Assembly (NCBI GenBank): GCA_028279805.1
Contig: JANQMZ010000007.1
Coordinates: 210,001-242,000 of the forward strand
Direction of reading: 5' to 3'
Source: an archaeon
Lineage (GTDB): Archaea > Iainarchaeota > Iainarchaeia > Iainarchaeales > JANQMZ01
Length of the DNA stretch: 32,000 nt
The translations under genes and the position numbers were made by a program. How positions within the stretch are numbered: position 1 is the first letter of the stretch; the number at the start of each line of letters is the position of its first letter. Positions 1,337 to 29,972 of this stretch are shown here, piece after piece. The notes under the pieces were generated by a model. The model did not search any database, was not told the DNA's origin, and worked only from the letters and a program-made list of their open reading frames with translations.

Positions 1337-1337
1337 T

Positions 1338-8295: not shown

Positions 8296-8318
8296 TGCCC
8301 GATGTTTCGGGCGGGAAC

Positions 8319-12208: not shown

Positions 12209-12529
12209 GTAAGGTAGTGAAAGGGCAGTTAAGGAATTCTCTGAATTCTTAGGAAAGTCCACCCACTCGTTAAAAATCTCGCAAGAGAAATTCTCGAAAG
12301 GGAGTCCATTGGAACAGAAACGAACTCAGGCAAACTTTGACAATGATAAAAAATTGAGTTGTTTGTTTTTGGGATGAAACGGCTGATGGTTTGAGTGCAA
12401 GTCATTGAGACGCTTAGACGAATGCTGCCAAGATGTGCTTTGTCAAAAAAGCAGGAATCAACAACAGAATGATTCTCGGTTTTTGAAACCGTATCCTAAC
12501 AGAAGGTGGCTTACTCTTCACTGCCTTAC
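12209..12529 (+). ncRNA. rnpB: RNase P RNA (archaeal type A-like)
   Basis: The terminal helix P1 is GTAAGGTAGTGAA (12209-12221) paired with TTCACTGCCTTAC (12517-12529). A P3-like hairpin is aaggaattc-tctg-gaattctt. The CR-I element is aggaaagtcca. A gggatgaaacggc (CR-IV-like) element is present. The CR-V element is aacagaaggtggcttac. A run of seven T follows at 12531-12537. No ORF occupies the region. Confidence 0.85.
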
Positions 12530-13790: not shown

Positions 13791-16457
13791 ATGGGTTTGG
13801 ACAAAAAAAAACTGGCAAAACAATTTCAAAAAGACTGGAAAAAACACTACAAAGTGAAATTCTTAGAACAAAGCGGTTTTAAAAGAATTAAATGTCAGTC
13901 CTGCGGAAAACATTTTTGGTCATTGGATTCTGACAGAAAAACTTGTGCTGATTCAAGTTGTGTTGGATTTGAATTTATCGGACAAAAAGGAAAAAATTTG
14001 GGTTATACTGAAACATGGGAAAAAATTGAAAAATATTTTACAAACAAAGGACACAAATCCATTACCCGTTATCCAACTGTTTGCAGGTGGCGTGATGATT
14101 TATATTTTACTAATGCTTCAATTATTGATTTTCAGCCTTACGTTGTTTCCGGTGAAATTGAGCCTCCGGCAAATCCTTTGATTGTGCCACAGCCAAGCAT
14201 CAGGTTTAGTGATATTGAAAATGTCGGAGTAACAGGACAGCATTATTCTTCGTTCATAATGTTCGGACAGCATGCTTTTAATTCAAAAAAAACAGGATTG
14301 TTTTACTGGAAAGATGAAGCACTGGAACATGATTTTAATTATTTAACAAAAGTTTTGGGCGTAAAAAAAGAAGACATAACTTTTATTGAAGATGTTTGGA
14401 TGGGTGGAGGAACTTTTGGCCCGAGTATTGAATATGCAGCAAAAGGTGTGGAACTGGGTAATTGTGTGTTTATGCAGTTTAAAGATTTGGGTAAAGGAAA
14501 ATTTGAGGAATTGCCGACAAAAGTTATTGATATGGGAGCCGGACTGGAAAGGCTGGCATGGTATACTAATGGCAGCCCCACAAGTTATGAAATTACATTC
14601 GGACCTGTTGTGCAGAAAATGAAAAAAAATGCAGGCATAAAAATTGACAACAAGTTGTTCACAGAATTTTCAAAACTTTCAGGTGCACTTGACGTTGAAA
14701 CTCATAATGTTAAAGAAAAAAGAGAAAAAATTGCAAAGCAATTAAAAGTTGATGAAGAGGAATTTTTTGGCACTTTAAAGCCTTTGCAGGCTGTTTATGC
14801 TTCAGCAGACCATTTGAAAACATTGCTGTATACGGTTGGTGACGGGCAAATGCCAAGCAATGGTTCAGGCGGATATAATCTGAGAATGCTGTTAAGAAGA
14901 GTTTTTGGTTTTAATGAAGAGTTTGATTTAAGGCTTGATTTTATCCAGGTGTTAAGAGAACATGCTGATTATTTGAAAGATTTTGACCCGATTTTAAAAG
15001 AAAATGTTGAAACTGTTGTTCAGGTAATTGAAGAAGAAGAAAAAAAGTTTGAAGAAACAAAATTAAAAGGAGCAAGAAAAATTGAAACAATTGTTAAAAA
15101 GAATAAAAAAATTGATTCAAAAGAATTAATTAAATTATATGAAAGTGATGGTATTTCTCCTGAATTAATTGAAGAAAAAGCACAGGAAGCCGGTGTTAAA
15201 ATAAATATTCCTGAAAATTTTTATGGTTTGATTGCTGCAAAAAATGAAAAAGACAAAAAACTGATAAAACATGAAATTGATGTAAGGCCTTACAAAAAAA
15301 CAAAAACATTGTTTTATGAGGATTCTTATTTAAGGGAATGCAATGCAACTGTTTTGGGAGTAATAGACAAAGGAATTATTTTGGATCAGACTGTTTTTTA
15401 TGCAGAGGGAGGAGGACAGGAATCCGATGAAGGTTTTATTGACGGCATAAAAGTTGAATTTGTTGAAAATGTGGACGGAGTATTGATACATTTTGTTGAA
15501 AATCCTGATAAATTTAAAAGAGGAAAAAAAGTTTTTTGTGAAATTGATTGGAACAGAAGAATTGATTTAATGAGGCATCATACCGGTGCTCATCTGTTAA
15601 ATGCAGCAGCAAGACAGGTTTTGGGAAAACATGTCTGGCAGACAGGAGCCCATAAAGCAAGAGAAAAAGCACATTTAGATATAACCCATTACAAGCGTAT
15701 TACCGGTAAAGAATTAAAACAAATGGAGTTATTGGCTAACCAGTTTGCATTGGAACAGCATGAAGTTGAAACAATGTTTATGCTGAGAAATGAAGCTGAA
15801 AAAAAATACGGATTCAGGTTATACCAGGGAGGGTTTGTGCCTGGAAAAACAATCAGAATTGTTAATGTTAAAAGTGTTGATGTTGAAGCATGCGGCGGAA
15901 CACATTTAAAAAATTCGTCAGAAGTCGGGTTATTCAAAATTTTAAAAAGAGAAGGAATTCAGGACGGAGTTGAAAGAATTGTATATGTATGCGGGTTGCC
16001 TGCAATTAAGGAAATGCAGAAAAAAGAAAGCTTGTTAAAAGATGCAGCTGAAAAACTTTCGGTTCCTGAAAAAAGTTTAACAAAAACAACTCAAAGATTT
16101 TTTAATGAATGGAAAGAGCAGAAAAAAACAATTGAATCACTGGAAAAAGAATTGATTGAATTAAAAACAGCAGAATTGCTGAAAATGGATGAAGAGATAA
16201 TCACAACTTATGTTCACGGACTGACTGCACAGGGTTTGATGAATTTGGCTAAAAAAGTTTTAAATGAAAAAGAAAATTCTTTATTGATAATAGGTTCAGG
16301 GGAAAATGTTTTTGCATTATCCGGAAAAAAATGTTCAAAAAATGCAAAAAAAGAACTGGCATTATTGTTACAGGAAACAAAATGGCAGGGTGGAGGCAAT
16401 GAAAAGCTTGCAAGGGGCAAAGTCCAAAATGCAAAAGAGTTGGAAAAACTGCTTTAA
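13791..16457 (+). CDS. alaS: Alanine--tRNA ligase (archaeal type, 888 aa)
   Basis: The N-terminal region is typical of archaeal AlaRS (FWSLD..., FQPYVVSGE, PQPSIRFSDIENVG, FEMLG-like FIMFGQHAF). The editing domain carries HTGAHLLN and CGGTHL. The C-terminus is a DHHA1-like GGGNEKLARGK. Confidence 0.95.
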   Translation: MGLDKKKLAKQFQKDWKKHYKVKFLEQSGFKRIKCQSCGKHFWSLDSDRKTCADSSCVGFEFIGQKGKNLGYTETWEKIEKYFTNKGHKSITRYPTVCRWRDDLYFTNASIIDFQPYVVSGEIEPPANPLIVPQPSIRFSDIENVGVTGQHYSSFIMFGQHAFNSKKTGLFYWKDEALEHDFNYLTKVLGVKKEDITFIEDVWMGGGTFGPSIEYAAKGVELGNCVFMQFKDLGKGKFEELPTKVIDMGAGLERLAWYTNGSPTSYEITFGPVVQKMKKNAGIKIDNKLFTEFSKLSGALDVETHNVKEKREKIAKQLKVDEEEFFGTLKPLQAVYASADHLKTLLYTVGDGQMPSNGSGGYNLRMLLRRVFGFNEEFDLRLDFIQVLREHADYLKDFDPILKENVETVVQVIEEEEKKFEETKLKGARKIETIVKKNKKIDSKELIKLYESDGISPELIEEKAQEAGVKINIPENFYGLIAAKNEKDKKLIKHEIDVRPYKKTKTLFYEDSYLRECNATVLGVIDKGIILDQTVFYAEGGGQESDEGFIDGIKVEFVENVDGVLIHFVENPDKFKRGKKVFCEIDWNRRIDLMRHHTGAHLLNAAARQVLGKHVWQTGAHKAREKAHLDITHYKRITGKELKQMELLANQFALEQHEVETMFMLRNEAEKKYGFRLYQGGFVPGKTIRIVNVKSVDVEACGGTHLKNSSEVGLFKILKREGIQDGVERIVYVCGLPAIKEMQKKESLLKDAAEKLSVPEKSLTKTTQRFFNEWKEQKKTIESLEKELIELKTAELLKMDEEIITTYVHGLTAQGLMNLAKKVLNEKENSLLIIGSGENVFALSGKKCSKNAKKELALLLQETKWQGGGNEKLARGKVQNAKELEKLL

Positions 16458-16469: not shown

Positions 16470-19346
16470 GTGAATTTTAGCTCTATTGAAAAAAATAGTC
16501 AGAAAACTTGGGAAGATGAAAAACTTTTTTCTCCGGAAATTGATTCAGAAAAAAAAGGATTTTACATTCAGGTTGCTTACCCGTATCCAAGCGGGGCAAT
16601 GCATATAGGACATGCAAAAACGTACACTACTACAGATATTATTGCAAAATACAAAATGCTTGCAGGCTATAATGTGTTAATGCCAATGGGATGGCATGTT
16701 TCAGGAACACCCGTGCTGGCAAGCGTTGAAAAATTAAAGGAAAAAGATTCTGAAACAGTTAAAATTTTTACAGAAAATTTTAAAATTCCTGAAAAAGATT
16801 TAAAAAAAATGCATACGCCTGATGGCCTTGTTAATTATATGGTTGATGAAGCGGAATACGGTTACAAAAAAGGAATGAAAATTTTGGGATTCGGAATTGA
16901 CTGGAGAAGAGAGTTGAAAACAATTGATGAACAATATAAAAAATTTATTGAATGGCAGTATGAAAAACTGAATCAAAAAAAATTAATCGGAAAAGGAAAA
17001 TATCCGATTCGTTATTCACCAAAAGACAAAATGGCTGTCGGAGACCATGATTTGAAAGAGGGAGAAGGAATAGGAATTCAGGAATTTACTTTGCTGAAAT
17101 TCAAACTTGAAGGATTTAAGAACAGGTTTTTGGTTGCAGCTACTTTAAGGCCTGAAACAGTTTACGGGCAGACAAATTTATGGTTAAATCCGGAATACAA
17201 ATACACTGTCATAAAAACAGGTAAAGAGGAATGGATTTTAAGTGAAAAAGCGGCAGAAAAGTTAATTTATCAAAAAGAAAACATAAAAAAAATTGGGAAA
17301 ATGAACTCAAGAGAGCTTTTAGGTGAAAAAGTTGAAGCTCCTGGAATTGACAGAAAAATTCCGATCTGGCCTGCTTCTTTTTGTGATCCTGAAATTGGCT
17401 CAGGAATTGTAACAAGTGTTCCGAGTGATGCTCCTATCGACATGGCCGCTTTGATTGACCTGCAGTCTGATGAAAGCATTGCAAAAAAACACGGGCTTGA
17501 TTTTGAGGAAATTAAAAATACAAAAATTATTCCGATTATTAAGACCAAAAAATTCGGAGAAAATGCAGGGGAAAAAATTTTAAAAGAAATGAATATAAAA
17601 AATCAAAAAGAGCTTGATAAGCTAGAAAAAGCAAAAGAAATTGTTTACAAAGAAGGGTTTCATTCAGGAGTCATGCTTGAAGCTGCCGGAAAATTCAAGG
17701 GATTAAAAGTTTCAAAAGCAAAAGATTTGATTAAGGAAGAATTGATTAAACAGGGAAAAGCTGATTTATTTTTTGAACTTGAAGGAAAAGTTGTTTCCAG
17801 GTCGGGCGGAGAATGTGTTGTTCGTTTGCTTGATGACCAGTGGTTTGTAAAATATGGCAATAAAGAATGGAAAAAGAACAGTAAAAAAGATTTGGACGGA
17901 ATGAAAATTGTTCCGGAAGTTTTTAGAAAACAGTATGAACAGATTTTTAACTGGCTTGATGACAAGCCTTTGACCCGTGCCAAAGGCCTGGGTACAAAAT
18001 TTCCATGGCAAAAAGACCAGGTAATTGAACCGCTGGGAGATTCAACTGTTTACATGGCTTATTTTACTATTGCACATTTGATTAATACAATTGAAGCTCA
18101 AAAGTTAAACGATGAGTTTTTTGATTTTATTTTTCTGGGAAAAGGTTCAGCAAAAAATGTTGCCGATAAAACCGGTTTAAAAGTGGATTTAATTGAGGAA
18201 TTGAAAAAAAATTTTGATTATTGGTATCCTCTGGCTTTTAATGTTTCAGCCATTGAATTGATTCCGAATCATATGAGTTTCAGCATTTTTCAGCATAATG
18301 CAATTTTTCCTCAAAACAAAAGGCAGATTGGCACAATTAATTTGGGAATGCTTATTTTGGAAGGAAAAAAAATGAGCTCATCAAAAGGAAATGTTATTCT
18401 GATTAATGATATTTGCAAAAAAATGGGAACTGATTATGTCAGGTTTTCTTTAATGAATTTTGTTGAACCGTGGGAAGAAATGAACTGGCAGTCAAAAGAA
18501 GTGTCAAAAGGAATTAAAAATTTGAATAATTTTGTTGAACAAATTTTCAAACTTGCAAACTCGGTTGATGAAGAAAAAATTGATTTAAAAAAATTAAATG
18601 ATGTGGATAAATGGTTTTTGAACCGGATAAATTTTAGAATTAACAATTATATTGGAAAAATGAATGAATTTGAATTAAGATCAGCCTTGCAGGAAATGTC
18701 CTTTAATTTGGCAAAAGATTTTAAGTGGTATAAAAGAAGAAATTCAAAATTAAACAATGCGATTATTTTTTATTTTGTTAAAAACTGGTGTAAAATTATT
18801 TCACCTTTTATGCCTCACCTGGCTGAAGAATTATGGAGGCATGTTTTGAAACAAAAAAACTCCGTTTTTTTATCAGGTTTGCCTGAAAAGCAAAAAATTG
18901 ACAAATCAGTGGGGGCGGGAGAAAACTTAATTGAAAAAGTTTTGGATGACGTTATTGCCATTAAGGCTTTGGCTAAAATTGAAAAACCTAAAAAAATTGT
19001 TTTTTACATTGCCGATGAATGGAAATGGAATGCTTTGAAATTGCTGAAAAAAGTGGACAGGCCTGATTTTGGCTTGGTTATAAAAACTTTAATGGCTGAT
19101 AAAACTGTTAAAAAACAGGGTAAAACTGCTCAACTGGTAGCAAAAGAATTTTCTTCAAGATTAATGGAGTTTAAAGATTTGGAAAAAATTGATGAGGAAA
19201 AAATTTTGAATGATTCAAAGGAGTTTCTGTTAAAGGAATTGAATGCTCAAAAAATTGAAATTTTTCATGAGAAAAAATCAGGTTTTGACCCCCAAAACAA
19301 AGCGGTTAAATCAATGCCGGGAAAGCCTGCAATTTATTTGGAGTAA
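16470..19346 (+). CDS. leuS: Leucine--tRNA ligase (archaeal/eukaryotic type, 958 aa)
   Basis: The start is GTG, with aaggtg 6 nt upstream. The HIGH motif is AMHIGHAKTY and the KMSKS motif is KMSSSKGN. A large CP1 editing insertion is present. The gene begins 12 nt after the alaS stop, so the two are probably co-transcribed. Confidence 0.95.
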   Translation: MNFSSIEKNSQKTWEDEKLFSPEIDSEKKGFYIQVAYPYPSGAMHIGHAKTYTTTDIIAKYKMLAGYNVLMPMGWHVSGTPVLASVEKLKEKDSETVKIFTENFKIPEKDLKKMHTPDGLVNYMVDEAEYGYKKGMKILGFGIDWRRELKTIDEQYKKFIEWQYEKLNQKKLIGKGKYPIRYSPKDKMAVGDHDLKEGEGIGIQEFTLLKFKLEGFKNRFLVAATLRPETVYGQTNLWLNPEYKYTVIKTGKEEWILSEKAAEKLIYQKENIKKIGKMNSRELLGEKVEAPGIDRKIPIWPASFCDPEIGSGIVTSVPSDAPIDMAALIDLQSDESIAKKHGLDFEEIKNTKIIPIIKTKKFGENAGEKILKEMNIKNQKELDKLEKAKEIVYKEGFHSGVMLEAAGKFKGLKVSKAKDLIKEELIKQGKADLFFELEGKVVSRSGGECVVRLLDDQWFVKYGNKEWKKNSKKDLDGMKIVPEVFRKQYEQIFNWLDDKPLTRAKGLGTKFPWQKDQVIEPLGDSTVYMAYFTIAHLINTIEAQKLNDEFFDFIFLGKGSAKNVADKTGLKVDLIEELKKNFDYWYPLAFNVSAIELIPNHMSFSIFQHNAIFPQNKRQIGTINLGMLILEGKKMSSSKGNVILINDICKKMGTDYVRFSLMNFVEPWEEMNWQSKEVSKGIKNLNNFVEQIFKLANSVDEEKIDLKKLNDVDKWFLNRINFRINNYIGKMNEFELRSALQEMSFNLAKDFKWYKRRNSKLNNAIIFYFVKNWCKIISPFMPHLAEELWRHVLKQKNSVFLSGLPEKQKIDKSVGAGENLIEKVLDDVIAIKALAKIEKPKKIVFYIADEWKWNALKLLKKVDRPDFGLVIKTLMADKTVKKQGKTAQLVAKEFSSRLMEFKDLEKIDEEKILNDSKEFLLKELNAQKIEIFHEKKSGFDPQNKAVKSMPGKPAIYLE

Positions 19347-19771
19347 AAACCTTTGTTTTCATAATCTAAATACATTTTACAGCATAGTGAACCTTTGCTT
19401 ACAGCTTCATGCAAATCTTCCGAAGTGCCCCATTTTATTGCTTGATATTGTGTAATTCCTTTTATAGGCTGAGGTGCTTTTGGTTTTCCGTGCACTATCT
19501 CTGCTTCATATTCTTTCATATTAAGAATATATTTTTCCCGTTCTGTCTGGTCTTCCCCAATAAGTTTAATTATTTTGAGCTTTACTCCAAGTTTTTGTTT
19601 TCCTGAACGCAATGTTGCTTTTTCAAAAGATTCATCTTCTTTAACTGAACCTGCTGGTAAACCCCAAGCCCCTGGCAGGTTTTCATCATCGTCTGGCCTT
19701 TTAACTATTAAAAATTTTGATCTGTCTTCAGTGTAAATCACATAAGAAATTGCGTTCTTTACTGGTTTCAT
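19334..19771 (-). CDS. Nudix-fold protein with a degenerate Nudix box (145 aa)
   Basis: GSVKEDESFEKATLRSGKQKLGV aligns with Gx5Ex7REUxEExGU. G, E, R and GU are conserved, but REUxEE is replaced by RSGKQK. It lies 39 nt downstream of the RSH gene on the same strand. A minus-strand TATA-like tttatataa lies in the gap. The 3' end overlaps leuS convergently by 13 nt. Confidence 0.8.
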   Translation of the reverse strand: MKPVKNAISYVIYTEDRSKFLIVKRPDDDENLPGAWGLPAGSVKEDESFEKATLRSGKQKLGVKLKIIKLIGEDQTEREKYILNMKEYEAEIVHGKPKAPQPIKGITQYQAIKWGTSEDLHEAVSKGSLCCKMYLDYENKGFYSK

Positions 19772-19810
19772 ATCTTTTATAGGAGCAGAGACTTATATAA
19801 AATTTTTCAT

Positions 19811-21595
19811 TTATTTTGAGAGTCCTTCTTCAACATTTGTAACTTTTTTAACTTTTTTAAGTGCTTTCATGGCTTTGTCAAATTTGGTTTTTGTTTTTGC
19901 ATCAACCCTGAATTCAACGTAAAGATTTTGACCAAGCCTTTCCTGATAAACATTTTCAATATTTATTTTAAATTTTGAAAGCACGCCAGTTAAGTCATGC
20001 ATTAAGCCTATTCTGTCACCTGCTCTTACAAAAATATATTTTAAACCTATTTTTTTGTCGGATTTTCTGGTTGACAATTTTAATGCTTTTATTATTTTTT
20101 CTTTTGTCTGAAGAGAATTTGTCATCTGAAGCCAGTCCGTTGAAACTGTTTTCTTTTTTGATTTGACGCATTCAATTCTGTTTCCGGAATGAAGTTCTGT
20201 GAAAAAAGGAACTTCTTTTCCGTTAACAAAAACTTTTTTTAGGTTGTTTCCTGTGTTTTTGTCAATGTGATATGCATAGTCCAGAGCAGTTGAATGTGAA
20301 GGTAAAGAATCAATTTTGCCGCTGTTGTCAAAAACAAAAATATGGTTTTGCAAAAATTCTTCTTTTAATGCGTCAAAAAATTTGTCACTTGACGCCAGTT
20401 TTAATTCTAAAACAGCTGCGGCTCTTCCAAGTTTTTTCTGGTAAAGAGTTTTTGAGCCTTTTTCAGGATCCAGGGCTGCTATTCCTTTTCTGGCAATTTT
20501 GTCCATTCTTTCAGAACGAATATAAACACGTACAGGCAGGCCTTTTGGGCCCAAAACTGTTGTGTGAATTGAACTGTATGTTCCGTCTCTTGGAACCGCT
20601 ATAAAGTCTTTTAATTTTCCGGGAATTGGGTAAAAAGTTGAATGAATTAAACCTAAAACTTCATAGCATTCAGTGAAATTTTTGGTAACAACTACCAGTA
20701 CAAGATAGTCATATATTTCGTCAAGTGAACGGTTTCCTTTTTTCATTTTTGCATAAATGTTATACAAGCTTTTTTCAAGAGTGTAAAAACGATAATTTCT
20801 GAAAGGAAAAACAATTTTGTTTTTTAAAATTTGAATCATTGAATCTGTTTGTTTTAACTTTGATTTTTTTTGTTTTTTAATTTTTTCTGACAATTCCTGA
20901 AATATTTTTGGTTCAAGAATTTTAAAACTTGAATCTTCCATTTCCCTTGCAATTGAATGCAATCCGAACCGGTGTGCTAACGGTGCATAAACCTGTAAAA
21001 TTTGGTTGGCAATTCTTTTCCTTTTTTTTGGTTTTAAATATGATAATGTTCTTGAATTATGAAGCTTGTCTGCAAGTTTTATCAAAATGACTCTGTAATC
21101 TTTTACCGATGCCAACAAAAGTTTTTGAAAAGATTTTAATTCTGCGGTTTTTCTTCCTTCAAGGGAAATTATGTCAAGTTTTGTTACTCCTTTAACAAGT
21201 TCTAAAACTGTTTTTCCGAATTTTTCTTCAACTTCTTTTTCTGTAGCATCAGTATCTTCCAAAACGTCATGCAATAGTCCTGCAATTATTATTTCATTTG
21301 AAACGTTGTATTCAAGCAAAATGTTTGCAGTTTCATAAAGATGAACAAAATATTTTTCGCCCGATTCTCTTTTTTGTTTTGAATGTTTTTCTTCGGCAAA
21401 AATAAAAGCTTCTTTTATTTTTTTTATATTTGGTTTTTTTATGTTTTTCCTGGCTTTTTTTAATAAAAGTTTTAATTCTTTTCTGAAAAGTTTTGCTTCT
21501 TTTTTTGTAAATGCTTTTAAAAAATCAAGTTTTGGCAGGCTTGGAACGCTTTTCAAAATGGGTTTTTTTGACATATTATAGTATATTTGAAGCAA
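19811..21595 (-). CDS. RelA/SpoT homologue (long RSH): HD hydrolase domain, degenerate synthetase-like domain, TGS and ACT
   Basis: HD motifs: HSKQKRESGEKYFVH, LLHDVLEDT, KLADKLHNSRTL. Synthetase-like region: EKSLYNIYAKM, IYDYLVLVVV, FIAVPRDGTYSSIHTTVLGPKGLPVRVYIRS. TGS: IFVFDNSGKIDSLPSHSTALDYAYHI...VNGKEV...LHSGNRIE. C-terminal ACT-like: IFVRAGDRIGLMHDLTGVLSKFKINI. The likely true start is the ATG at 21574 (MSKKPILK), 21 nt downstream of a minus-strand TATA tttttataaa (21605-21596). Confidence 0.9.
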   Translation of the reverse strand: MLQIYYNMSKKPILKSVPSLPKLDFLKAFTKKEAKLFRKELKLLLKKARKNIKKPNIKKIKEAFIFAEEKHSKQKRESGEKYFVHLYETANILLEYNVSNEIIIAGLLHDVLEDTDATEKEVEEKFGKTVLELVKGVTKLDIISLEGRKTAELKSFQKLLLASVKDYRVILIKLADKLHNSRTLSYLKPKKRKRIANQILQVYAPLAHRFGLHSIAREMEDSSFKILEPKIFQELSEKIKKQKKSKLKQTDSMIQILKNKIVFPFRNYRFYTLEKSLYNIYAKMKKGNRSLDEIYDYLVLVVVTKNFTECYEVLGLIHSTFYPIPGKLKDFIAVPRDGTYSSIHTTVLGPKGLPVRVYIRSERMDKIARKGIAALDPEKGSKTLYQKKLGRAAAVLELKLASSDKFFDALKEEFLQNHIFVFDNSGKIDSLPSHSTALDYAYHIDKNTGNNLKKVFVNGKEVPFFTELHSGNRIECVKSKKKTVSTDWLQMTNSLQTKEKIIKALKLSTRKSDKKIGLKYIFVRAGDRIGLMHDLTGVLSKFKINIENVYQERLGQNLYVEFRVDAKTKTKFDKAMKALKKVKKVTNVEEGLSK

Positions 21596-21605
21596 TTTAT
21601 AAAAA
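21596..21605 (-). promoter_or_regulatory. Candidate TATA box for the RSH gene
   Basis: The minus strand reads tttttataaa immediately after the argS stop. It is 21 nt upstream of the ATG at 21574, which fits a leaderless or short-leader transcript. Confidence 0.35.
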
Positions 21606-21609
21606 TCTT

Positions 21610-23319
21610 TTACATTTGCTCTAATGGTTCAACATTTAACAATTTTAAGGCTTTTTTCAGGACAATTGAAAAAGCTTTTACAAGTGAGAGTCTTGCTTTA
21701 ACGGTTTCCTTGTTTTCAGCATTTAAAACGGGGATATCCTGGTAAAAAGAATTAAACGAGGTGGCCAATTCGTTTAAATAAATGCATAAATGATGCATTG
21801 AATTTGAAGAGCGGCTTTTTTGAACAGCATCTTTAAAATGCCATAATTTTTTTATAACTTCAAGTTCTTTTTTTTCTTTCAACAAAGAAAAATCTGCATT
21901 TTCAGGATTTGAAGCTTTTCTTAAAATTCCTTTTGCTCTTGCATAAGAATACATTAAATATGGTCCTGAGTCTCCCTCAAAAGATAATGATTGCTGGGGA
22001 ACAAATGTAAAATTTTTTTTGGAATCAATTTTTAACATTGAAAATTTTATTGCTGCAAGAGCTATTTTTAACGCTCTTTTTTCTAATTCATCTTTTTTTA
22101 CATTTGGAAATCTTTTAATAATTTCTTTTTGTGCGGAATTTTTTAACTGTTTTATTAAATCATCAGCATCAATTGTGTTGCCTTCACGGCTTTTTAATTT
22201 TCCTTCAGGCAATAAAACCAGGCCATAACTTAAATGATGAGATTTTTTTGCTTCACTGTAACCCAATAAATCCATTATTTTGAACAATTGTTTAAAATAC
22301 AAGTCTTGTTCTGATGCAACAACATAATAACTTTCATCAAATTTGTAATCTTTAAATTTTTTTAACATTAAAACCATGTCCTGGTTAATGTAAATTGATG
22401 AACCGTCTGAGCGCAGAATTATTTTGTTCGGAATTTTATATTTTTCCAAATCAGCTATAATTCTGTTTTTATCATCTTTAACAAAAACACCTGTTTTTAG
22501 CCCTTTTTTTATCAAAGGTTTTGCTTTGTCATACAAATCTGATTCAAAATAAATTTTGTCAAATTCTGAACCGAATGTTTTGTAAGTTTCTTTAAAACCT
22601 TCAAGAGCCCAGTCTCTTGATTTTTTCCATAATGCTCTTACATTTTTATCTTTTCTTTCCCAGTCTAAAAGCATTTTTTGTGCTTCTTTTTCAAGTGTTT
22701 CATCTTTTTTTGCTTTTTCGTGAAACAAAACATAATATTTTCCGGCAAACTTGTCTCCTTTTAATTTTTCTTTTTCAGGTGTTGAATTTTTTCCGAATTT
22801 TTTGTATGCAACAAGCCCCTGGCAGATGTGAATGCCCCGGTCATTTATTATGTTTACTCGTGCGACTTTGTTTTCATAAAATTCGAGCAAATTTGAAAAA
22901 GCCATTCCGATGCTGTCATTTCTTAAATGCCCTAAATGTAAAGGTTTATTTGGATTTGGCTGGGAATATTCCACTACAATTTTTTTATTTTCAGGTTTTG
23001 GTTTTCCAAAATTTTCTTTTTTTTCAAAAATTTCTGTTAAAATTTTTTGAGTTAAAAATGTGCTGTTGACAAAAAAATTCAGATAAGGCCCTGCTGCTTC
23101 CGCTTTTGATAATTCTTTTGGCATTTTTAATTTTTGTGAAAGATTTTTTGCAATTTCATTCGGGTTTTTTTTAAGCTCTTTTGCGAGCAAAAAACAGGGA
23201 AAAGCGTAATCACCGAGCTTTGAATCCGGGGGAATTTCCAACGCTTTTATTATCTGCTTTTCTTTTAATGAGGAAACTTCCTTGGATAAAAGTTTTGCGA
23301 TTATTGTTTTAAAATGCAT
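21610..23319 (-). CDS. argS: Arginine--tRNA ligase
   Basis: The HIGH-type motif is NPNKPLHLGHLRN, the MSTR-like region is KLKSREGN, and a C-terminal DALR anticodon-binding-like region is present. The track ORF extends to 23421. That extension would overlap the divergent gene starting at 23384, so the ATG at 23319 (MHFKTIIAKLL...) is preferred. Confidence 0.93.
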   Translation of the reverse strand: MHFKTIIAKLLSKEVSSLKEKQIIKALEIPPDSKLGDYAFPCFLLAKELKKNPNEIAKNLSQKLKMPKELSKAEAAGPYLNFFVNSTFLTQKILTEIFEKKENFGKPKPENKKIVVEYSQPNPNKPLHLGHLRNDSIGMAFSNLLEFYENKVARVNIINDRGIHICQGLVAYKKFGKNSTPEKEKLKGDKFAGKYYVLFHEKAKKDETLEKEAQKMLLDWERKDKNVRALWKKSRDWALEGFKETYKTFGSEFDKIYFESDLYDKAKPLIKKGLKTGVFVKDDKNRIIADLEKYKIPNKIILRSDGSSIYINQDMVLMLKKFKDYKFDESYYVVASEQDLYFKQLFKIMDLLGYSEAKKSHHLSYGLVLLPEGKLKSREGNTIDADDLIKQLKNSAQKEIIKRFPNVKKDELEKRALKIALAAIKFSMLKIDSKKNFTFVPQQSLSFEGDSGPYLMYSYARAKGILRKASNPENADFSLLKEKKELEVIKKLWHFKDAVQKSRSSNSMHHLCIYLNELATSFNSFYQDIPVLNAENKETVKARLSLVKAFSIVLKKALKLLNVEPLEQM

Positions 23320-23383
23320 GGAATAATTAGAAAAAACCCTTTTAATAAGGTTTTCCAGCTCTACTTTTTTTTGGTGAAATTGG

Positions 23384-24037
23384 ATGTATGCAGTATCTTC
23401 ATCCGGAGGAAAAGACAGCACTTTTGCATTGTTTAAGGCATTGGAACAAAATTTTAAAGTAACTCATCTGATTCATGTTTACAATCCGGATACTTCAAGG
23501 GTAAGATTTCATGGTTATAAGCCTGAAATGGTTTCAAAACAAGCTGAACTTTTAGGGCTAAAGGAAATTATAAAACCCACAAGATCTGAAAAATTTGAAC
23601 AGGATTTTGAACTTGTTTTAAAAGAAGCAAAAAAACAGGGAATAAAAGGGTTGATTTTTGGAAATCTTTTTCTTGAAGATGTAAGAGAATTTTATCAAAA
23701 AAATGTCACAAATGCAGGCCTGGAATATTATGATGTTTTATGGAAACAGCCGACTGAAAAAGTTTTAAAAAATTTTATTAAAACCGGTTTTAAAGCAATT
23801 ATAACTTCGGTTTGGTTAAAAAAACTTGATAAAAAATTTTTAGGAAAACATATTAATGAAAAATTTTTAAAAGAAATTAAAAAAGAAAAAAATGTTGATT
23901 TCTGCGGAGAAAACGGAGAATATCATTCTCTTGTTTTTAACGGGCCGTTATTCAAAAAACCGCTGGAATATGAAACATTTGGTGTTCATGAAGAAAAGGA
24001 AAACATTTTTTTGGATATAAGAAAAAAAGAAAATTAA
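23384..24037 (+). CDS. dph6: PP-loop ATPase of the MJ0570 / diphthine--ammonia ligase (Dph6) family
   Basis: The N-terminal SGGKDS PP-loop is MYAVSSSGGKDSTFAL, and the C-terminal signature is GENGEYHSLVFNGPLF (GExGE(F/Y)H..V.dxPxF). The length of 217 aa matches the stand-alone archaeal form. Confidence 0.78.
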   Translation: MYAVSSSGGKDSTFALFKALEQNFKVTHLIHVYNPDTSRVRFHGYKPEMVSKQAELLGLKEIIKPTRSEKFEQDFELVLKEAKKQGIKGLIFGNLFLEDVREFYQKNVTNAGLEYYDVLWKQPTEKVLKNFIKTGFKAIITSVWLKKLDKKFLGKHINEKFLKEIKKEKNVDFCGENGEYHSLVFNGPLFKKPLEYETFGVHEEKENIFLDIRKKEN

Positions 24038-24678
24038 ACTGCTTGTGCTTTTTCCTGTTTTCTTTTAAATCGTTTTAATCTGAACGTGTCTTCTCTTTCC
24101 ATTTCTTCAAGCCTTAACTGAATAAATTTGGCATCCAGTTCCATTGCGGGAATAATGTTGAATTCCAAAGCATTTACCCTGCGTTTTGTTTTGCCTATTT
24201 CCATCAATAATTTTTTTAAAGTGGTTTCAATTTCAGCTGCAATAATAATATTTTTAATTAAAGTGCCGTAACTTTTGGCGGCATCATCAATGTAAGCCGA
24301 TGTTCCAATTACACCATAACCTCTCTCATTAAACTTCCATTCTAAAACACTTGAATCTGAATCAATTTCAGGGACCCTTACACCCATAACCATTTTGCTG
24401 TTAACATTTAAATTTAATTCAGAAACTCTTCCAAGAGCAGCTGATTTAACAGAAAAAGTTCCTTCAATTGCCCTTGCAAGATTAATTGAATCAGTTGCTT
24501 TTTTAAAATTTTGATTTAACTCTGACTTCATTTCTTTTGCTTTTTCAAAAACTTTAAAAAATTCTCTTATTAAACCGTCTCTTTTTCTCTGAAGCAAAGA
24601 ATGCCCGGATTTTGCCAGCTTGATTTTTCTCCTCAGTTTTAATAACTCGGAACGAGTTGGTTTAATGTCTTTAGCCAT
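24034..24678 (-). CDS. atpD: A/V-type ATP synthase subunit D
   Basis: MAKDIKPTRSELLKLRRKIKLAKSGHSLLQRKRDGL is the typical subunit D N-terminus. This is the last gene of the operon, after atpB. Confidence 0.93.
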   Translation of the reverse strand: MAKDIKPTRSELLKLRRKIKLAKSGHSLLQRKRDGLIREFFKVFEKAKEMKSELNQNFKKATDSINLARAIEGTFSVKSAALGRVSELNLNVNSKMVMGVRVPEIDSDSSVLEWKFNERGYGVIGTSAYIDDAAKSYGTLIKNIIIAAEIETTLKKLLMEIGKTKRRVNALEFNIIPAMELDAKFIQLRLEEMEREDTFRLKRFKRKQEKAQAV

Positions 24679-24687
24679 TTTTTCACT

Positions 24688-26115
24688 TTATTCTTTTTCA
24701 GTAACAGTTTCTTTTTCTTTCTCTTCAGGTTTTTGTTCCTGAACATTTTCTTCCACAGGTTTTTCAGTGTAATATTTTTCAATTAATTCTTCATCAATTC
24801 TTGTTAACTCTGTTCTCGGCAACAAGGATAACAAGTCCCAGCCAAGATTTAATGTGTCATCAATTGACCTGTTTTCATGGTTTCCCTGTGCAATAAATTT
24901 TTGTTCAAAATTGTCTGCAAATTTTAAAAATCGTTTATCCCTGTCACTCATTGCTTCCTCACCAACAATTGTAACAAGCCCTCTTAAATCCCGTCCCTCT
25001 GCATAAGCAGCATACAGCTGATTCGAAACCGCTTTATGGTCCTCTCTTGTTTGTTTCGGGCCTATGCCTGCATTCATTAACCTGCTTAAACAGGGCAGAA
25101 CATCAATAGGCGGCATGATTCCTTTTCTGTTCAAATCTCTTCCCAGAACAATTTGCCCCTCGGTAATATACCCTGTCAAATCGGGAACAGGATTTGTAAT
25201 GTCATCTCCTGGCATTGTTAAAATTGGCACCTGTGTAACAGAGCCTTGTTTGTTTTTGATTAAGCCTGCTCTTTCATAAATGCTTGCCAAATCTGTATAC
25301 ATGTAACCAGGATAACCACGCCTGCCCGGAACTTCTTCTCGTGCCGCGCCTATCTCCCTTAAAGCTTCACAGTAATTTGTCATGTCAGTCAAAATAACAA
25401 GCACGTCCATTTTTTCTTCAAAAGCCAGGTATTCTGCGGTTGTCAAAACCATTCTTGGCGTAATTAACCTTTCAATTGCAGGGTCGTCTGCCAGATTCAA
25501 AAAAATTGCAGTTCTTTCCAGTGCACCTGTCTCCTCAAAATCACGGATAAATTGCTGGGCTTCCTCGCTTGTAATTCCCATAGCCCCAAACACAACTGCA
25601 AAATTTCCTCCTTTGGCTTTGGATTGTCTTGCAATCTGTAACGCAATTTCATTGTGAGGCAAACCTGAACCTGAAAAAATCGGCAGCTTTTGTCCTTTAA
25701 CCAAAGTATTCATTCCGTCTATTGTTGAAATGCCTGTCTGAATAAAATCTTTAGGAGAATCTCTTGAAAAAGGGTTGATAGCAGCGCCATTAACATCTTT
25801 TTTTTCTTTTGGAATAATTTCAGGACCTTTGTCTATCGGTTTTCCAAGACCTGAAAAAACTCTGCCAAGCAAATCTTTTGACACGCCAAGCCGGATTGTT
25901 TTTCCCGTAAATTTAACAGTTGAAGCTTTTTCTATTCCGGATGTTCCTTCAAAAACCTGTACAACAACAACATCTTCAGATGTGTCCAGTACTTGTCCGT
26001 TTTTTTTCTCAGAACCCAAATCTATTTCAACCAATTCTCCGAATGAAACGTCGTGTGTTTTTTCAACAAAAATTAAAGGGCCTGCAACTTTTGAAATTGT
26101 TTTATATTCCTTCAT
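24688..26115 (-). CDS. atpB: A/V-type ATP synthase subunit B
   Basis: [19 protein letters not shown]...; the non-catalytic nucleotide-binding subunit pattern is [20 protein letters not shown]. The C-terminus has a Glu/Lys-rich tail. Confidence 0.95.
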
Positions 26116-26118
26116 TTT

Positions 26119-27879
26119 TTATCCTCCAATTAAACCATTAACCTCTTTTTCAATTTTTTCAGAAATTTCACTGATTTTTTTGTTAAAATTTTTTTCTTCA
26201 ATTAATCTTGCTTTAACAAGCTCGTTTTTACTTTCAATGTTTGTAACAGCTTCGACACTGACACCTTTATCTACAGCATTTTCCGCCAAATCTCCAAATG
26301 AAATAATTGCTTTTAACAATCCGGATTGTTTTTTTAAAGAACAAAAAGAATCAATTTCATGAAAAGCATTCTGCTGCAAAAAAGCTTCCCTGATAATTCT
26401 TGCAATTTCCAATGTTAACCTTTCTTTTTCCGGTAAAGAATCAGAACCAACAAGCTGAACAATTTCCTGCAGTTCGTCTTCTTTTTGCAGAATATTCATT
26501 GCCTTTGTTCTTAAATAAATTGAATCCTTTGAAACATTGTCAACATACCATTGCTTTAACGGCTCATTATACAAAGAATAAGAATTCAGCCAGTTAATTG
26601 CCGGAAAATGCCTTCTGTGAGCCAATTTTGCGTCCAATGCCCAGAAAACTTTTGTAATTTTTAACGTATTTTGGGTTACAGGTTCAGAAAAATCTCCGCC
26701 TGGCGGGGACACAGCACCTATTGCTGTAACCGAACCAATTCTTTTTTTGTCAGAGCCTAAACAGCTTACCCGGCCGGCCCTTTCATAAAATTCAGCCAGT
26801 CTTGCAGCAAGATATGCAGGATAACCTTCTTCACCCGGCATTTCCTCCAGTCTTGATGAAATTTCTCTCATTGCTTCAGCCCATCTTGAAGTTGAATCCG
26901 CCATCAATGAAACATCATAACCCTGGTCTCGAAAATATTCTGCAATTGTCATTCCGGTATAAATTGAAGCTTCTCTTGCAGCCACCGGCATGTTGGATGT
27001 GTTTGCAATTAAAACAGTTCTTTCCATTAACGGCCTGCCGGTTTTAACATCCTGCAATTCCGGAAATTCTGTTAAAACTTCCGTCATTTCGTTTCCTCTT
27101 TCACCACAGCCGATATAAACAACGATTTCAGCATCAGACCATTTGGCTAACTGTTGTTGTGTAACCGTTTTTCCGGAACCGAACGGTCCTGGAATGCTTC
27201 CTGTTCCACCTTTTGCAATCGGAAAAAAAGTATCCTGCAGTCTTTGTCCTGTGATTAAAGGAATTTCAGGAAACAGTTTTTCTTTTGAAGGCCTTGGCCT
27301 TCTTACAGGCCAGTAATGGCCCAGATATAATTTTTCACCGTTGTCTAATTCGCCAATTGTTTCTTTTACGGTAAAAGAACCTGATTTAATTTTTTTAATT
27401 TTGTGTGAAACTTTTCCGGTAATTGTAGGCGGAATCATTATTTTGTGAACAATGTTTTCTGTTTCCTTAACAGTGCCAATCACATCCCCGCCTGAAACTT
27501 TGTCACCTTTTTTTACTGTTGCATTAAATTTCCACTTTTTTTTAACATCCAAGCCGGGAACATCTGCTCCTCTTAAAATAAAATTTCCCATTTGTTTTAC
27601 AAGAACAGGCAAAGGCCTCTGAATTCCGTCATAAATCTGTCCAAGCATTCCCGGTCCCAGAAAAATTGACAAAGGTTTTCCTGTGTTTGAAACTTTTTCT
27701 CCCGGTTTTAATCCGGTTGTTTCCTCATAAACCTGAATTGTAACTTTGTCGCCGGAAATCTGAATAACCTCACCCATTAATTCTTCTTCACCGACTTTAA
27801 CCAAGTCATACATTCTTGCTTTCAGTCCCTGTGCAACAACAACAGGTCCGGAAATTCTGTAAATTTTTGCTACTTCCAT
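26119..27879 (-). CDS. atpA: A/V-type ATP synthase catalytic subunit A
   Basis: The Walker A motif is GPFGSGKTV, and [13 protein letters not shown] and [10 protein letters not shown] are present. The protein is 586 aa with no intein. Confidence 0.96.
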
Positions 27880-28169
27880 AAGTCCACCCCAACATTTTGT
27901 TTAATCATTTCACGCAGGCTTACTTCCTGCCCGGTTTCAGATAATGTCACTATAACCGGTGTAACAGCCTTTTCAAGCCTTTTTTTTGTGTTAAAAGATA
28001 ATGCCTGAAAATCTTTTTCCTCCATTACCAGCACACCAAAATCCTGGTTGCCGATTAGCCTGTTTACTTTTTCATCAATCTCTTTGTCTGTTACAACAAA
28101 AGAATGTTTTAAACCTGCCAACTGAAAGCCTGTTACAAAATCATCAGAACCAATTATTGCCATTTCCAT
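27870..28169 (-). CDS. atpF: A/V-type ATP synthase subunit F
   Basis: 99 aa, with [18 protein letters not shown] typical of subunit F. It overlaps the atpA start by 10 nt and abuts the atpC stop. Confidence 0.88.
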
Positions 28170-29655: not shown

Positions 29656-29684
29656 TTTTTCTCCTTAAAAAACTTTTTCAATTT

Positions 29685-29912: not shown

Positions 29913-29972
29913 CTTTTAATCTCCTCCTGTTTTTTTTACCATATTAAAAGTTAGGTAAGTATAATTTTTTAT

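Follow-up and report, generated by a model that had tools for sequence, protein, structure and literature searches.

We describe here a full-length RelA/SpoT homologue (RSH) of an archaeon in which a degenerate synthetase site stands beside an intact hydrolase site. The gene lies in the window, that is, the whole stretch of 32,000 nucleotides of contig JANQMZ010000007.1 that was analysed. In our view, the protein is probably a ribosome-independent, hydrolase-only long RSH of the SpoT[Hs] type with a regulatory pseudo-synthetase domain, belonging to an old archaeal clade in which the gene is inherited together with its neighbours in an argS-RSH(-leuS-alaS) block. According to this reading, an Mn2+-dependent HD pyrophosphohydrolase would remove the 3'-diphosphate from (p)ppGpp, most probably, or from a closely related nucleotide, and the dead but conserved pseudo-synthetase, the Core helix pair, the TGS and the ACT domain would serve as intramolecular regulators or scaffolds of hydrolysis. 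The enzyme would act off the ribosome, both ribosome anchors (the helical domain, HEL, and the zinc-finger domain, ZFD) having been deleted and the CCA-reading histidine of the TGS domain being gone. The monophyletic clade, whose named members are labelled Diapherotrites (DPANN), would go back to one old event, after which the RSH gene would have been passed on within the block.

Domain layout and the two enzymatic sites

The long-RSH gene occupies positions 19811..21574 of the reverse strand and encodes 587 amino acids counted from the ATG at 21574; this form is identical in sequence to the database protein P0001. An alternative TTG start at 21595 gives a longer ORF (19811..21595, reverse strand) of 594 amino acids, in the numbering of which the layout is as follows: HD domain (~63-212), pseudo-synthetase domain (~275-374), two-helix Core, TGS domain (420-477), a short helical remnant and ACT domain (521-589). 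The earlier note had proposed a full-length relative of the long RSHs with all four modules and had advised HMM searches, and these bear it out, since HD_4 (3.4e-43), RelA_SpoT (3.3e-22), TGS (2.1e-6) and ACT_4 (6.2e-8) all exceed the curated Pfam cut-offs. The succession of HD_4 and RelA_SpoT within one polypeptide defines the long-RSH class, and the C-terminal TGS and ACT domains make up its regulatory region. In contrast, the match to the NCBIfam model TIGR00691 (spoT_relA), which spans model positions 1-457 of 687, reaches 459 bits and thus stays below the cut-off of 499.2. The best sequence match is B. subtilis Rel (6yxa; 1e-96). In the AlphaFold model (pLDDT 84.5, pTM 0.73), the N-terminal half superimposes on solved Rel N-terminal domains with TM scores of 0.83-0.93, the highest being obtained with S. 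aureus Rel (7oiw; TM 0.93, 2.1-2.3 A); helices 374-389 and 396-408 form a folded Core that separates the synthetase domain from TGS, and the C-terminus adopts the beta-alpha-beta-beta-alpha-beta fold of an ACT domain.

Alignment to 6yxa with phmmer, and with MAFFT, shows that the HD motifs are complete, as had been supposed. All nine residues of the hydrolase-competent [H] set that were checked (R44, H53, H77, D78, E81, D82, D144, N148 and T151 in Rel numbering) are kept in the query; all 120 homologues share them without exception, as do 137 of another 141 sequences (140 library representatives and P0001). Bacteria conserve 43 HD columns to at least 93%, and in 34 of these the archaeal clade is unchanged. 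Two positions that are invariant in bacteria do differ: the equivalent of B. subtilis R125 is mostly Gln in the clade, and that of K126 is variable. The protein is predicted to be an active hydrolase.

The synthetase domain presents a different picture. With B. subtilis Rel (6yxa) as the reference for numbering, the same two alignments reproduce every one of the motif changes listed previously: GRPK has become TLEK, AVR has become VLV, EVQIRT has become RVYIRS, and AAHWAYK has become AALDPEK. The query therefore has Leu in place of R241, Val in place of R269, Arg in place of the catalytic E324 and Tyr in place of Q326, and the possibility that a proper alignment would restore the catalytic residues can be set aside. 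The degenerate catalytic strand reads P-V-R-V-Y-I-R-S (L-E-V-Q-I-R-T in B. subtilis Rel) and maps to about 20525..20554 of the reverse strand, as calculated from residues 349-356 of the 594-aa ORF. These changes are common to the whole clade, in agreement with the proposal that the degeneration is ancient and not the private decay of one gene. The E324 position holds Lys or Arg in 32 of 32 clade members of the first set, and Lys in 25, Arg in two and Gln in two of the 29 sequences (P0001 among them) from the representative library; the Q326 position is mostly Tyr, and both ATP-side arginines, R241 and R269, are gone. The residue set of synthetase-competent [S] enzymes (GRxK with R241 and K243, D264, R269 and E324-x-Q326) is invariant in the bacterial proteins and is incomplete here, and only 15 of the 36 bacterial-invariant columns of the domain are kept in the clade; the full GRKKDR..YHEQR signature is found in every bacterial protein of the first set of at least ~700 aa. 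We therefore infer that the protein lacks synthetase activity.

It should be noted that the pseudo-synthetase domain is not decaying freely: its mean within-clade identity (0.38) is close to that of TGS (0.39; HD, 0.48), each of the residues D264, K251, K297, Y308 and H312 persists in at least 25 of the 29 clade sequences, and the modelled N-terminal half fits the S. aureus Rel structure closely, as stated above. The preservation of the Mg-binding D264 and of the guanine-stacking Y308, together with a replacement of Glu by specifically Lys or Arg, could point to retained nucleotide binding or to altered catalysis rather than to a purely structural role.

The protein had been described as about 150 aa shorter than bacterial Rel. 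The shortfall is real and lies in a single place, between TGS and ACT, where the core spacing is ~50 residues in the clade versus ~204 in bacteria. The ~150 missing residues correspond to the helical (AH/HEL) and zinc-finger (ZFD/RIS) domains of the canonical architecture: none of 32 clade members has the CCxP motif of the zinc finger, which 41 of 44 bacterial proteins possess, and PF19296 and PF28438 are not assigned in the query, unlike in the bacterial matches. In addition, the TGS histidine of the ribosome-dependent Rel/RelA mode (H420 in B. subtilis, H432 in E. coli), which is 100% conserved in the bacterial proteins, is Asp in the query and Asp, Ser, Glu or Tyr across the clade. It has been shown that H420 stacks on the 3' CCA of deacylated tRNA and that specific tRNA binding needs both TGS and the helical domain (PMC7797070). 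Since this histidine is lost and the helical domain deleted, the suggestion that the TGS domain senses tRNA is unlikely to hold in the bacterial mode. The same losses suggest that the enzyme works independently of the ribosome. The pseudo-synthetase, TGS and ACT domains may have a regulatory role. The ACT domain is absent from a subgroup of the clade with proteins of ~480-512 aa.

An archaeal clade

The view that the gene is native to its genome, and as AT-rich as its neighbours, is supported by several observations. Archaeal genes for SSU and LSU rRNA, an RNase P RNA that is likewise archaeal and the operon of an A/V-type ATPase lie in the window; the RSH gene, with a GC content of ~0.32 that matches its neighbours, lies 8-12 kb from the RNase P RNA and the rRNA operon, and is flanked by an archaeal argS and an archaeal-type leuS. 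Moreover, at least six further archaeal contigs carry the argS-RSH-leuS-alaS block, and identity among their ArgRS proteins is no more than 48-63%. A bacterial contaminant, a chimeric assembly or a recent horizontal transfer of a gene without settled function would have a precedent in a 2.5-kb contig (L071) that is labelled Methanomethylophilaceae and bears a Coriobacteriia-like Rel. Composition, flanking genes, recurrence of the block and the monophyly and internal depth of the clade all speak against it, however, so that this explanation has effectively been refuted and retains next to no probability.

The same type of RSH is found in ~40 clusters at 50% identity. All 12 sampled loci are archaeal in appearance, those with a name being labelled Diapherotrites by NCBI, and intron-containing tRNAs occur at six related loci. 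As bacterial outgroup and synteny control, we used the 80 bacterial Rel/SpoT loci among the matches listed. In a neighbour-joining (NJ) tree, which relies on a simple distance model and on a bacterial sample biased toward the best matches, the clade is separated from all sampled bacterial long RSHs in 100 of 100 bootstraps with the full alignment, and the split is recovered in 47 of 50 bootstraps when only HD and TGS columns are used. The sequences of Vibrio, Pantoea, Alteromonas and Ralstonia group with the other bacteria, opposite the clade across the 100/100 bipartition; hence, the NJ tree does not place the archaeal proteins in the SpoT subfamily, the RelA paralogue of Beta- and Gammaproteobacteria. 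Jimmy et al. 2020 divide the long RSHs into 13 subfamilies.

The statement that long RSHs are absent from archaea is true of Atkinson 2011 (PMC3153485) only, and is contradicted by Li et al. 2021 (PMC8407392), according to whom RelA/SpoT occurs in 69% of the genomes of Diapherotrites, in 42% of those of Woesearchaeota, in 21% for Pacearchaeota and in 19% for Nanoarchaeota. Homologues from this archaeal clade are also present in public records, under the names 'bifunctional (p)ppGpp synthetase/hydrolase', 'GTP pyrophosphokinase' and 'HD domain-containing protein', so that the reservation in the earlier note that close homologues might already be annotated was justified as far as their presence is concerned. 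The DPANN proteins of Li et al. very probably belong to the same gene family; the accessible part of that paper predicts a bacterial origin for them and speaks of proteins that 'synthesized and/or hydrolyzed' (p)ppGpp, and does not deal with catalytic residues, domain loss or gene neighbourhood. Thus, the presence of the family in DPANN was known, and, judging from that part, the dead state of the synthetase site, the lack of the parts that bind the ribosome and the constant position beside arginine genes seem to be undescribed.

Relation to known RSH proteins and competing explanations

The closest parallel is provided by SpoT[Hs] of the Moraxellaceae, exemplified by A. baumannii SpoT (SpoTAb, PDB 7qpr), for which experiments have shown hydrolase activity only, a pseudo-SYNTH domain that is regulatory and a TGS that serves as a scaffold (PMC9974481). 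Both proteins combine an intact HD domain with a synthetase fold that has been retained without its catalytic residues, and both have a Core helix pair between SYNTH and TGS, which we see in the model of the archaeal protein and take for SpoTAb from the published description (PMC9974481). In SpoTAb, TGS likewise acts as a scaffold rather than as a tRNA reader, and the enzyme is ribosome-independent (PMC9974481). On sequence and model features, and with SpoTAb compared by its description (PMC9974481), the archaeal protein falls in the SpoT[Hs]-type monofunctional class, which is polyphyletic. The two differ in other respects. In the NJ tree, the archaeal clade does not fall among the Gammaproteobacteria, and its loss of the synthetase is independent. 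SpoTAb has lost the equivalents of D272, Q347, R249, R277 and Y329, whereas the archaeal clade has kept the Asp and the Tyr and lost the Glu, the Gln and both Arg. SpoTAb keeps HEL and ZFD, its activity being HEL-dependent, and operates alongside RelA; the archaeal proteins have neither domain.

With the bifunctional Rel enzymes (B. subtilis 6yxa, S. aureus 7oiw, RelSeq 1vj7), the archaeal protein shares the order HD-SYNTH-Core-TGS-...-ACT and identical hydrolase residues. These enzymes are, however, synthetase-competent, bind the ribosome via HEL/ZFD and read deacylated tRNA via H420 of TGS, and the sequence features for all three are missing in the archaeal protein. Small alarmone hydrolases and metazoan MESH1, whose HD fold is homologous according to the fold search, are also hydrolase-only RSHs, from organisms that lack an alarmone synthetase or in which its presence is disputed, but they are single-domain proteins of ~180 aa, while the archaeal protein has retained the entire long-RSH scaffold and groups with the long RSHs. 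Plant RSH1, which belongs to a plastid or eukaryotic lineage, is another long RSH held to be hydrolase-only on account of a substituted synthetase-critical residue, and retains TGS and ACT.

Several public annotations have it that proteins of the clade are ordinary bifunctional Rel enzymes that make and degrade (p)ppGpp, NCBI/JGI names including 'bifunctional (p)ppGpp synthetase/guanosine-3',5'-bis(diphosphate) 3'-pyrophosphohydrolase' and 'GTP pyrophosphokinase'. The RelA_SpoT score above the Pfam cut-off and the retention of D264, K297 and Y308 are in line with these names. Nevertheless, this explanation is very unlikely in view of the exchange of the catalytic Glu for Lys/Arg and of the Gln for Tyr and the loss of both ATP-side arginines across the clade, of the TIGR00691 score below its cut-off (459 versus 499), and of the finding that A. 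baumannii SpoT is synthetase-dead after comparable, partly overlapping residue losses (PMC9974481). The pseudo-synthetase might, alternatively, have taken on a new job, either as a nucleotide sensor (for GDP, GTP or (p)ppGpp) by which the hydrolase is switched, or as a new transferase using Lys-x-Tyr in place of Glu-x-Gln. Such a role would fit the specificity of the replacement (Lys or Arg in 32 of 32 sequences of the first set and in 27 of 29 of the second, with Tyr commonest at the Gln position), the retention of K297, H312 and Y308 on the guanine-nucleotide side and of D264, and the behaviour of bacterial Rel, in which occupancy of the SYNTH site is coupled to HD activity and in which the D264G variant has raised hydrolysis. 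With R241 and R269 lost and the charge reversed where the metal-binding Glu stood, neither the binding of ATP-Mg nor the transfer of pyrophosphate is likely; the sensor version is compatible with a hydrolase-only SpoT[Hs]-type enzyme and refines that explanation more than it competes with it. Taken as a whole, we regard a new job as rather doubtful.

A further alternative is that the HD domain acts on another substrate (NADPH or PAPS-like phosphates, as in metazoan MESH1; (p)ppApp or pGpp; or a tRNA with a 3'-pyrophosphorylated end) in an archaeal pathway unrelated to the stringent response. In its favour, (p)ppGpp had not been detected in any archaeon as of 2021 (PMC8646023). Likewise in favour of another substrate, no synthetase-competent RSH is visible within the window, the neighbourhood consists of aminoacyl-tRNA synthetase genes, the fold search lists NADPH- and PAPS-bound MESH1 structures among the HD homologues, and R125 and K126 are changed in the clade. 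On the other hand, the nine residues by which (p)ppGpp hydrolases are defined have all been retained, most of the bacterial-invariant HD columns (the 34 of 43 mentioned above) are unchanged, and the closest structures are (p)ppGpp-bound Rel N-terminal halves. We consider a different substrate conceivable, with a minor share of the probability. It is also conceivable, as a tentative idea, that the protein is an orphan hydrolase, preserved over a very long time in an archaeal, apparently DPANN, lineage that makes no (p)ppGpp itself, where it would destroy an alarmone or ppApp-type toxin products of partners or neighbours or act on a new substrate, with the ACT and pseudo-SYNTH domains tying it to arginine or amino-acid status; such a tie would explain the fixed place of the gene after argS or argH. 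If this were true, the clade would possess an archaeal, ribosome-free nutrient-signalling module made from stringent-response parts.

Under the preferred explanation of a hydrolase-only enzyme, the clade presents a puzzle similar to that of MESH1, namely a hydrolase whose checked residues are under strong constraint, with a dead synthetase site and no known source of substrate. The database names 'bifunctional (p)ppGpp synthetase/hydrolase' and 'GTP pyrophosphokinase' are then probably wrong for this clade, and inferences on the stringent response that metabolic reconstructions of DPANN have drawn from these genes need to be revisited. In addition, a protein that by nature lacks HEL, ZFD and the TGS histidine offers a minimal long-RSH scaffold on which control of the hydrolase by Core, TGS and pseudo-SYNTH can be tested.

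Gene order around argS

Directly upstream of the RSH gene and in the same direction lies argS (21610..23319, reverse strand; Pfam Arg_tRNA_synt_N, tRNA-synt_1d and DALR_1), which encodes arginyl-tRNA synthetase. On the other side, an archaeal-type leuS (16470..19346, forward strand; leuS_arch, 960 bits) converges on the RSH gene, and alaS (13791..16457, forward strand) completes the recurrent block. At the 12 archaeal loci, which are phylogenetically non-independent, argS precedes the RSH gene in seven and argH in two; the arrangement of argS or argH followed by rel was seen at 0 of the 80 bacterial rel loci among the matches listed. A leuS homologue is present beside or near the RSH gene at six of the 12 loci, and an AlaRS or AlaX homologue at five. 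From the argS/argH/his neighbourhood, a link to arginine or amino-acid status through the ACT domain is possible; equally, the adjacency to argS could reflect no more than inherited synteny, with no functional tie between the genes. The identities of ArgRS and RSH correlate with r = 0.45 over non-independent pairs, a value that supports co-evolution weakly.

Downstream of the RSH gene, at a distance of 39 nt, a Nudix-fold ORF (19334..19771, reverse strand) has a degenerate Nudix box, in which RE-x2-EE reads RS-x2-QK. Lack of conservation across the other loci makes it doubtful that this ORF belongs to the RSH unit: no similarity could be detected between it and the NUDIX gene of another locus (L083) or the small RSH-adjacent ORFs elsewhere, and we have dismissed the idea of a conserved Nudix partner. 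A reading as a defence system was likewise dropped, the RSH having no PADLOC match and the neighbours all being housekeeping genes.

The gap between argS and the RSH gene, which had been put at 14 nt, has this length if translation starts at the TTG, and is 35 nt (21575..21609, reverse strand) if it starts at the ATG. The 35-nt spacer holds a TATA-like sequence, TTTTTATAAAT, at 21605-21595, ~26 nt upstream of the RSH ATG as read from the sequence. In a genome this rich in AT, a TATA-like match may be fortuitous; nonetheless, such elements stand before each gene, which argues against obligatory co-transcription, and the RSH gene may have its own promoter and give rise to a leaderless mRNA.

Domain content and catalytic sites of the RSH

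The gene of the long RelA/SpoT homologue (RSH) is located at 19811..21595 on the minus strand of the window, and its ORF encodes 594 aa from a TTG codon or 587 aa from an ATG at 21574. A public protein, P0001, encoded on an 853,278-bp contig, is identical to the 587-aa form. A TATA-like element (TTTTTATAAAT, ~21595-21605) is present ~26 nt 5' of this ATG, and because the TTG overlaps its downstream edge by one base, the 587-aa form is favored. Another TATA-like element (TTTTATATAA, ~19788-19797) precedes the ATG of the neighboring Nudix-like ORF by ~30 nt, which suggests that the two genes may have separate promoters and leaderless mRNAs.

The earlier note recognized all long-RSH modules in this one protein, and an HMM search found each of them above the curated Pfam cut-off: HD_4 (hydrolase domain, HD; aa 63-212, 3.4e-43), RelA_SpoT (synthetase domain, SYNTH; aa 275-374, 3.3e-22), TGS (aa 420-477, 2.1e-6) and ACT_4/ACT (aa ~520-589, 6e-8). 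The score for the NCBIfam model TIGR00691 (spoT_relA), 459 bits, did not reach the cut-off of 499, with the alignment restricted to positions 1-457 of the 687-position model. An AlphaFold2 model built from the clade alignment (mean pLDDT 84.5, pTM 0.73) contains the HD and SYNTH folds, helices 374-389 and 396-408 at the position of the Core, a TGS beta-grasp, a short helical remnant (479-497) and a beta-alpha-beta-beta-alpha-beta ACT domain. With Foldseek, its N-terminal half matched the N-terminal domains of S. aureus Rel with pppGpp (7oiw; TM 0.93, rmsd 2.1-2.3 A), and the best full-length matches were E. coli RelA, B. subtilis Rel and A. baumannii SpoT.

Residues were compared in a phmmer alignment to B. 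subtilis Rel (PDB 6yxa, E = 1e-96), whose numbering we use, and in a MAFFT alignment of 120 homologues. Both reproduced each of the statements made before on the intact hydrolase site and the altered synthetase site. The hydrolase set R44, H53, H77, D78, E81, D82, D144, N148 and T151 is intact. In the synthetase domain, GRPK is replaced by TLEK (R241 lost, K243 kept), AVR by VLV (R269 lost), L-E-V-Q-I-R-T by V-R-V-Y-I-R-S (E324 to R, Q326 to Y) and AAHWAYK by AALDPEK (H343 lost); D264, K251, K297, Y308 and H312 are still present.

It should be noted that the gene is native to its archaeal contig. In the window, both the 16S-tRNA-Ala-23S operon (6576-11558) and the RNase P RNA gene (12213-12525) are archaeal, and there are also an A/V-type ATPase operon (24034-31784) and a LeuRS of the archaeal type (TIGR00395 leuS_arch, 960 bits). 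As the earlier note had it, the RSH gene resembles its neighbors in composition, GC being ~0.32 both across the gene and in the flanking protein-coding DNA, and the gene block is found again on other archaeal contigs. Together, these observations effectively exclude a chimeric or contaminant origin. No 5S rRNA gene was found adjoining the 16S-23S operon in the window. Several ORFs of 130-307 aa without a Pfam match are located at 881-4722, 11628-12170 and 12580-13476, two of which flank the RNase P RNA gene.

An archaeal clade sharing the synthetase-site loss

The nine hydrolase residues are present in all 120 best database matches, which fall into two sharply distinct classes by length and synthetase signature. 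All proteins of at least ~700 aa have the invariant signature G-R-K-K-D-R-R-K-K-N-Y-H-E-Q-R, whereas in ~40 proteins of 480-670 aa G240, R241 and R269 are missing, E324 is replaced by K or R, and position 326 is occupied by Y, F, H, R, I or S. The other short entries among these 120, a ~640-aa group and truncated bacterial fragments, retain E-x-Q. When 1.84 billion cluster representatives were searched with a profile, the best 150 matches included at least ~38 short-type clusters at 50% identity (single-stretch match, 464-635 aa). In a set of 29 clade proteins without the Glu (28 library representatives plus P0001, added as reference), position 324 is K in 25, R in two and Q in two, and position 326 is Y in 21; D264 is retained in 28, K251 in 26, K297 in 25, and Y308 and H312 in 27 each. 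The replacement of the Glu by a basic residue is thus itself conserved and, judging from these alignments, loss of the synthetase site is a trait of the clade and not the private decay of one gene.

The domain, predicted to be catalytically dead, is still under constraint. Among bacteria, 43 HD, 36 SYNTH and 14 TGS columns are conserved to at least 93%; the clade retains 34, 15 and 7 of them, respectively. Mean pairwise identities are 0.48, 0.38 and 0.39 within the clade, and 0.56, 0.53 and 0.56 in bacteria, respectively, indicating that the clade's SYNTH is relaxed yet constrained about as much as its TGS.

A neighbor-joining tree (Kimura distances, 552 columns) comprised 32 members of the clade, a diverse set of 44 bacterial long RSHs, and a group of eight proteins, most of them ~640 aa long. 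The short clade formed one bipartition in 100/100 bootstraps, and in 47/50 when only HD and TGS columns were used, so that the grouping is no artefact of shared SYNTH decay. It is internally deep, with long branches, and falls inside none of the sampled bacterial phyla. As the method is simple and the bacterial sample is skewed to best matches, we take monophyly as well supported and assign no donor. All 12 loci examined look archaeal: three clade members are labelled 'Candidatus Diapherotrites archaeon' by NCBI, six loci (L081-L085 and L089) carry intron-containing tRNA genes (seven matches, 106-171 nt against a 71-position tRNA model), Rpp14 is encoded at L082, and A-type ATPase operons are present at several loci.

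One further candidate was set aside. The contig CAVBAX010000206.1 (L071, 2465 bp), assigned to a 'Candidatus Methanomethylophilaceae archaeon' bin, encodes a complete Rel of bacterial type that pairs tip to tip in the tree with the Paratractidigestivibacter Rel (L040), and is probably MAG contamination rather than an archaeal RSH. In the ~640-aa group (P0016, P0019, P0021, P0022, P0028, P0085), E-x-Q is intact, R295 is replaced by E/Q and K297 by D, and the TGS-to-ACT span is also shortened. Finally, P0234, a protein of bacterial length (706 aa), carries the changes E324Q and Q326H and could represent one more pseudo-synthetase of independent origin.

The premise that long RSHs are absent from archaea, stated by Atkinson et al. 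2011 (PMC3153485) and adopted in the earlier note, is outdated. In the census of Li et al. 2021 (PMC8407392), the share of genomes with RelA/SpoT is 69.0% for Diapherotrites, 41.7% for Woesearchaeota, 21.3% for Pacearchaeota and 19.0% for Nanoarchaeota, and the DPANN genes are predicted to be of bacterial origin; its passage on the proteins describes them only as enzymes that 'synthesized and/or hydrolyzed' alarmones. Their presence in DPANN archaea was therefore already known, and the clade genes are routinely annotated in public records. Within the literature covered, which is incomplete, we found no description for archaeal RSHs of the degenerate synthetase site, of the missing domains and TGS His, or of the synteny with argS or argH.

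Reduced C-terminal region and predicted function

The ~150-aa shortfall relative to bacterial Rel, correctly noticed before, sits at one site: the TGS and ACT cores are ~50 residues apart in the clade versus ~204 in bacteria. A CCxP zinc-finger motif was found in 0/32 clade proteins but in 41/44 bacterial ones; PF19296 (RelA_AH_RIS) and PF28438 were assigned to bacterial matches, never to short ones; and a subclade of ~480-512 aa also lacks ACT. At the TGS position corresponding to H420 of B. subtilis Rel (H432 of E. coli RelA), 100% of the bacterial proteins have His; the window's RSH has Asp, and the clade as a whole D, S, E or Y. H420 stacks on the 3' CCA of uncharged tRNA, H420E abolishes specific recognition, and stable tRNA binding needs a TGS-Helical fragment, TGS alone being insufficient (PMC7797070). 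With both the His and the helical domain absent, canonical sensing of the ribosome and deacylated tRNA by the clade proteins is very unlikely, and the tRNA sensing via TGS proposed earlier is disfavored.

Most likely, the RSH acts independently of the ribosome as a monofunctional 3'-pyrophosphohydrolase of the (p)ppGpp-hydrolase type, in which the pseudo-SYNTH, Core, TGS and ACT would tune hydrolysis within the molecule. Nucleotide sensing by the pseudo-SYNTH is plausible in view of what is kept on the guanine-nucleotide side and of the conserved basic residue (Lys/Arg) opposite D264; responsiveness to amino acids is likewise plausible given the ACT domain and the argS, argH and his neighborhood. 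What is least certain is the substrate. As of 2021, (p)ppGpp had been detected in no archaeon (PMC8646023), which speaks for a non-alarmone substrate, or for an alarmone from outside the cell, a serious alternative to which we give perhaps one chance in four.

In mechanism, the predicted hydrolase comes closest to SpoT[Hs] of Moraxellaceae, a hydrolase-only enzyme with a regulatory pseudo-SYNTH, a TGS scaffold and ribosome-insensitive activity (PMC9974481). However, the clade differs from it in its independent origin and in having no known partner synthetase. Other residues are lost than in A. baumannii SpoT, since the clade keeps the Asp and Tyr that are gone there and loses the Glu, and the clade lacks the helical and zinc-finger domains on which the activity of that enzyme depends. 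The sequence evidence supports the earlier proposal of an anciently acquired, hydrolase-only RSH, and the clade is best described as a predicted archaeal [Hs] subfamily of long RSHs, whose C-terminal region is reduced and whose synteny is distinctive.

Gene neighborhood

The gene order in the window is the ATPase operon, argS, RSH and the Nudix-like ORF, followed by convergent leuS and alaS. At seven of the 12 loci (the window, L081, L083, L086, L087, L088 and L089), argS is directly upstream of and co-directional with RSH, with gaps of 0-168 nt in the latter six; identities across these loci are only 48-63% for ArgRS and 31-42% for RSH. At the closely related L085 and L091, argH (argininosuccinate lyase; 4481-5827 on the plus strand at both; TIGR00838, 334-337 bits versus a cut-off of 279.5) occupies this upstream, co-directional position instead, so that an arginine-related gene directly precedes RSH at 9/12 loci. 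A leuS homologue is beside or near RSH at six loci and an alaS or alaX homologue at five, and hisS and/or histidine-biosynthesis genes adjoin it at L083, L084, L085, L090 and L091. In the 6-kb flanks of 80 bacterial rel/spoT control loci, ArgRS, LeuRS, AlaRS and ArgH homologues were found at 0/80, HisRS at four and AspRS at five, in a tblastn comparison that is less sensitive across domains and in which the archaeal loci are non-independent samples. We regard the putative link of RSH to arginine and tRNA charging as a lead, a further caveat being that RSH and the Nudix-like ORF may each be transcribed from a promoter of their own. The histidine genes concerned are hisG, hisI, hisA/F, hisD, hisB/C and hisH, a context that recalls the Firmicute rel-hisS-aspS linkage, present in 4-5 of the 80 control loci.

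The Nudix-fold ORF (19334-19771, minus strand, 145 aa; Pfam NUDIX 5.7e-9) lies 39 nt 3' of RSH. Its Nudix box reads G-SVKED-E-SFEKATL-RS-G-K-QK-L-G-V, with S, Q and K in place of the catalytic glutamates of RE-x2-EE, and the protein may be a second pseudo-enzyme beside the pseudo-synthetase. It has a weak PADLOC PDC-S07 match (1e-11), and the canonical NUDIX genes close to RSH at L083 and L090 are not its homologues. A ~200-aa protein without a Pfam match and with a HEYAHFP motif is encoded between leuS and alaS at L086 (10954-11556) and L089 (10850-11455), on the minus strand in both; the two are 48% identical and absent from the leuS-alaS junction of the window. The mechanical argS ORF of the window (21610-23421, minus strand, 603 aa from GTG) overlaps a divergent PF01902, diphthamide-synthase-like gene (23384-24037, plus strand); since ArgRS homologues are 567-575 aa long, the true argS start is taken to be the ATG at 23319.
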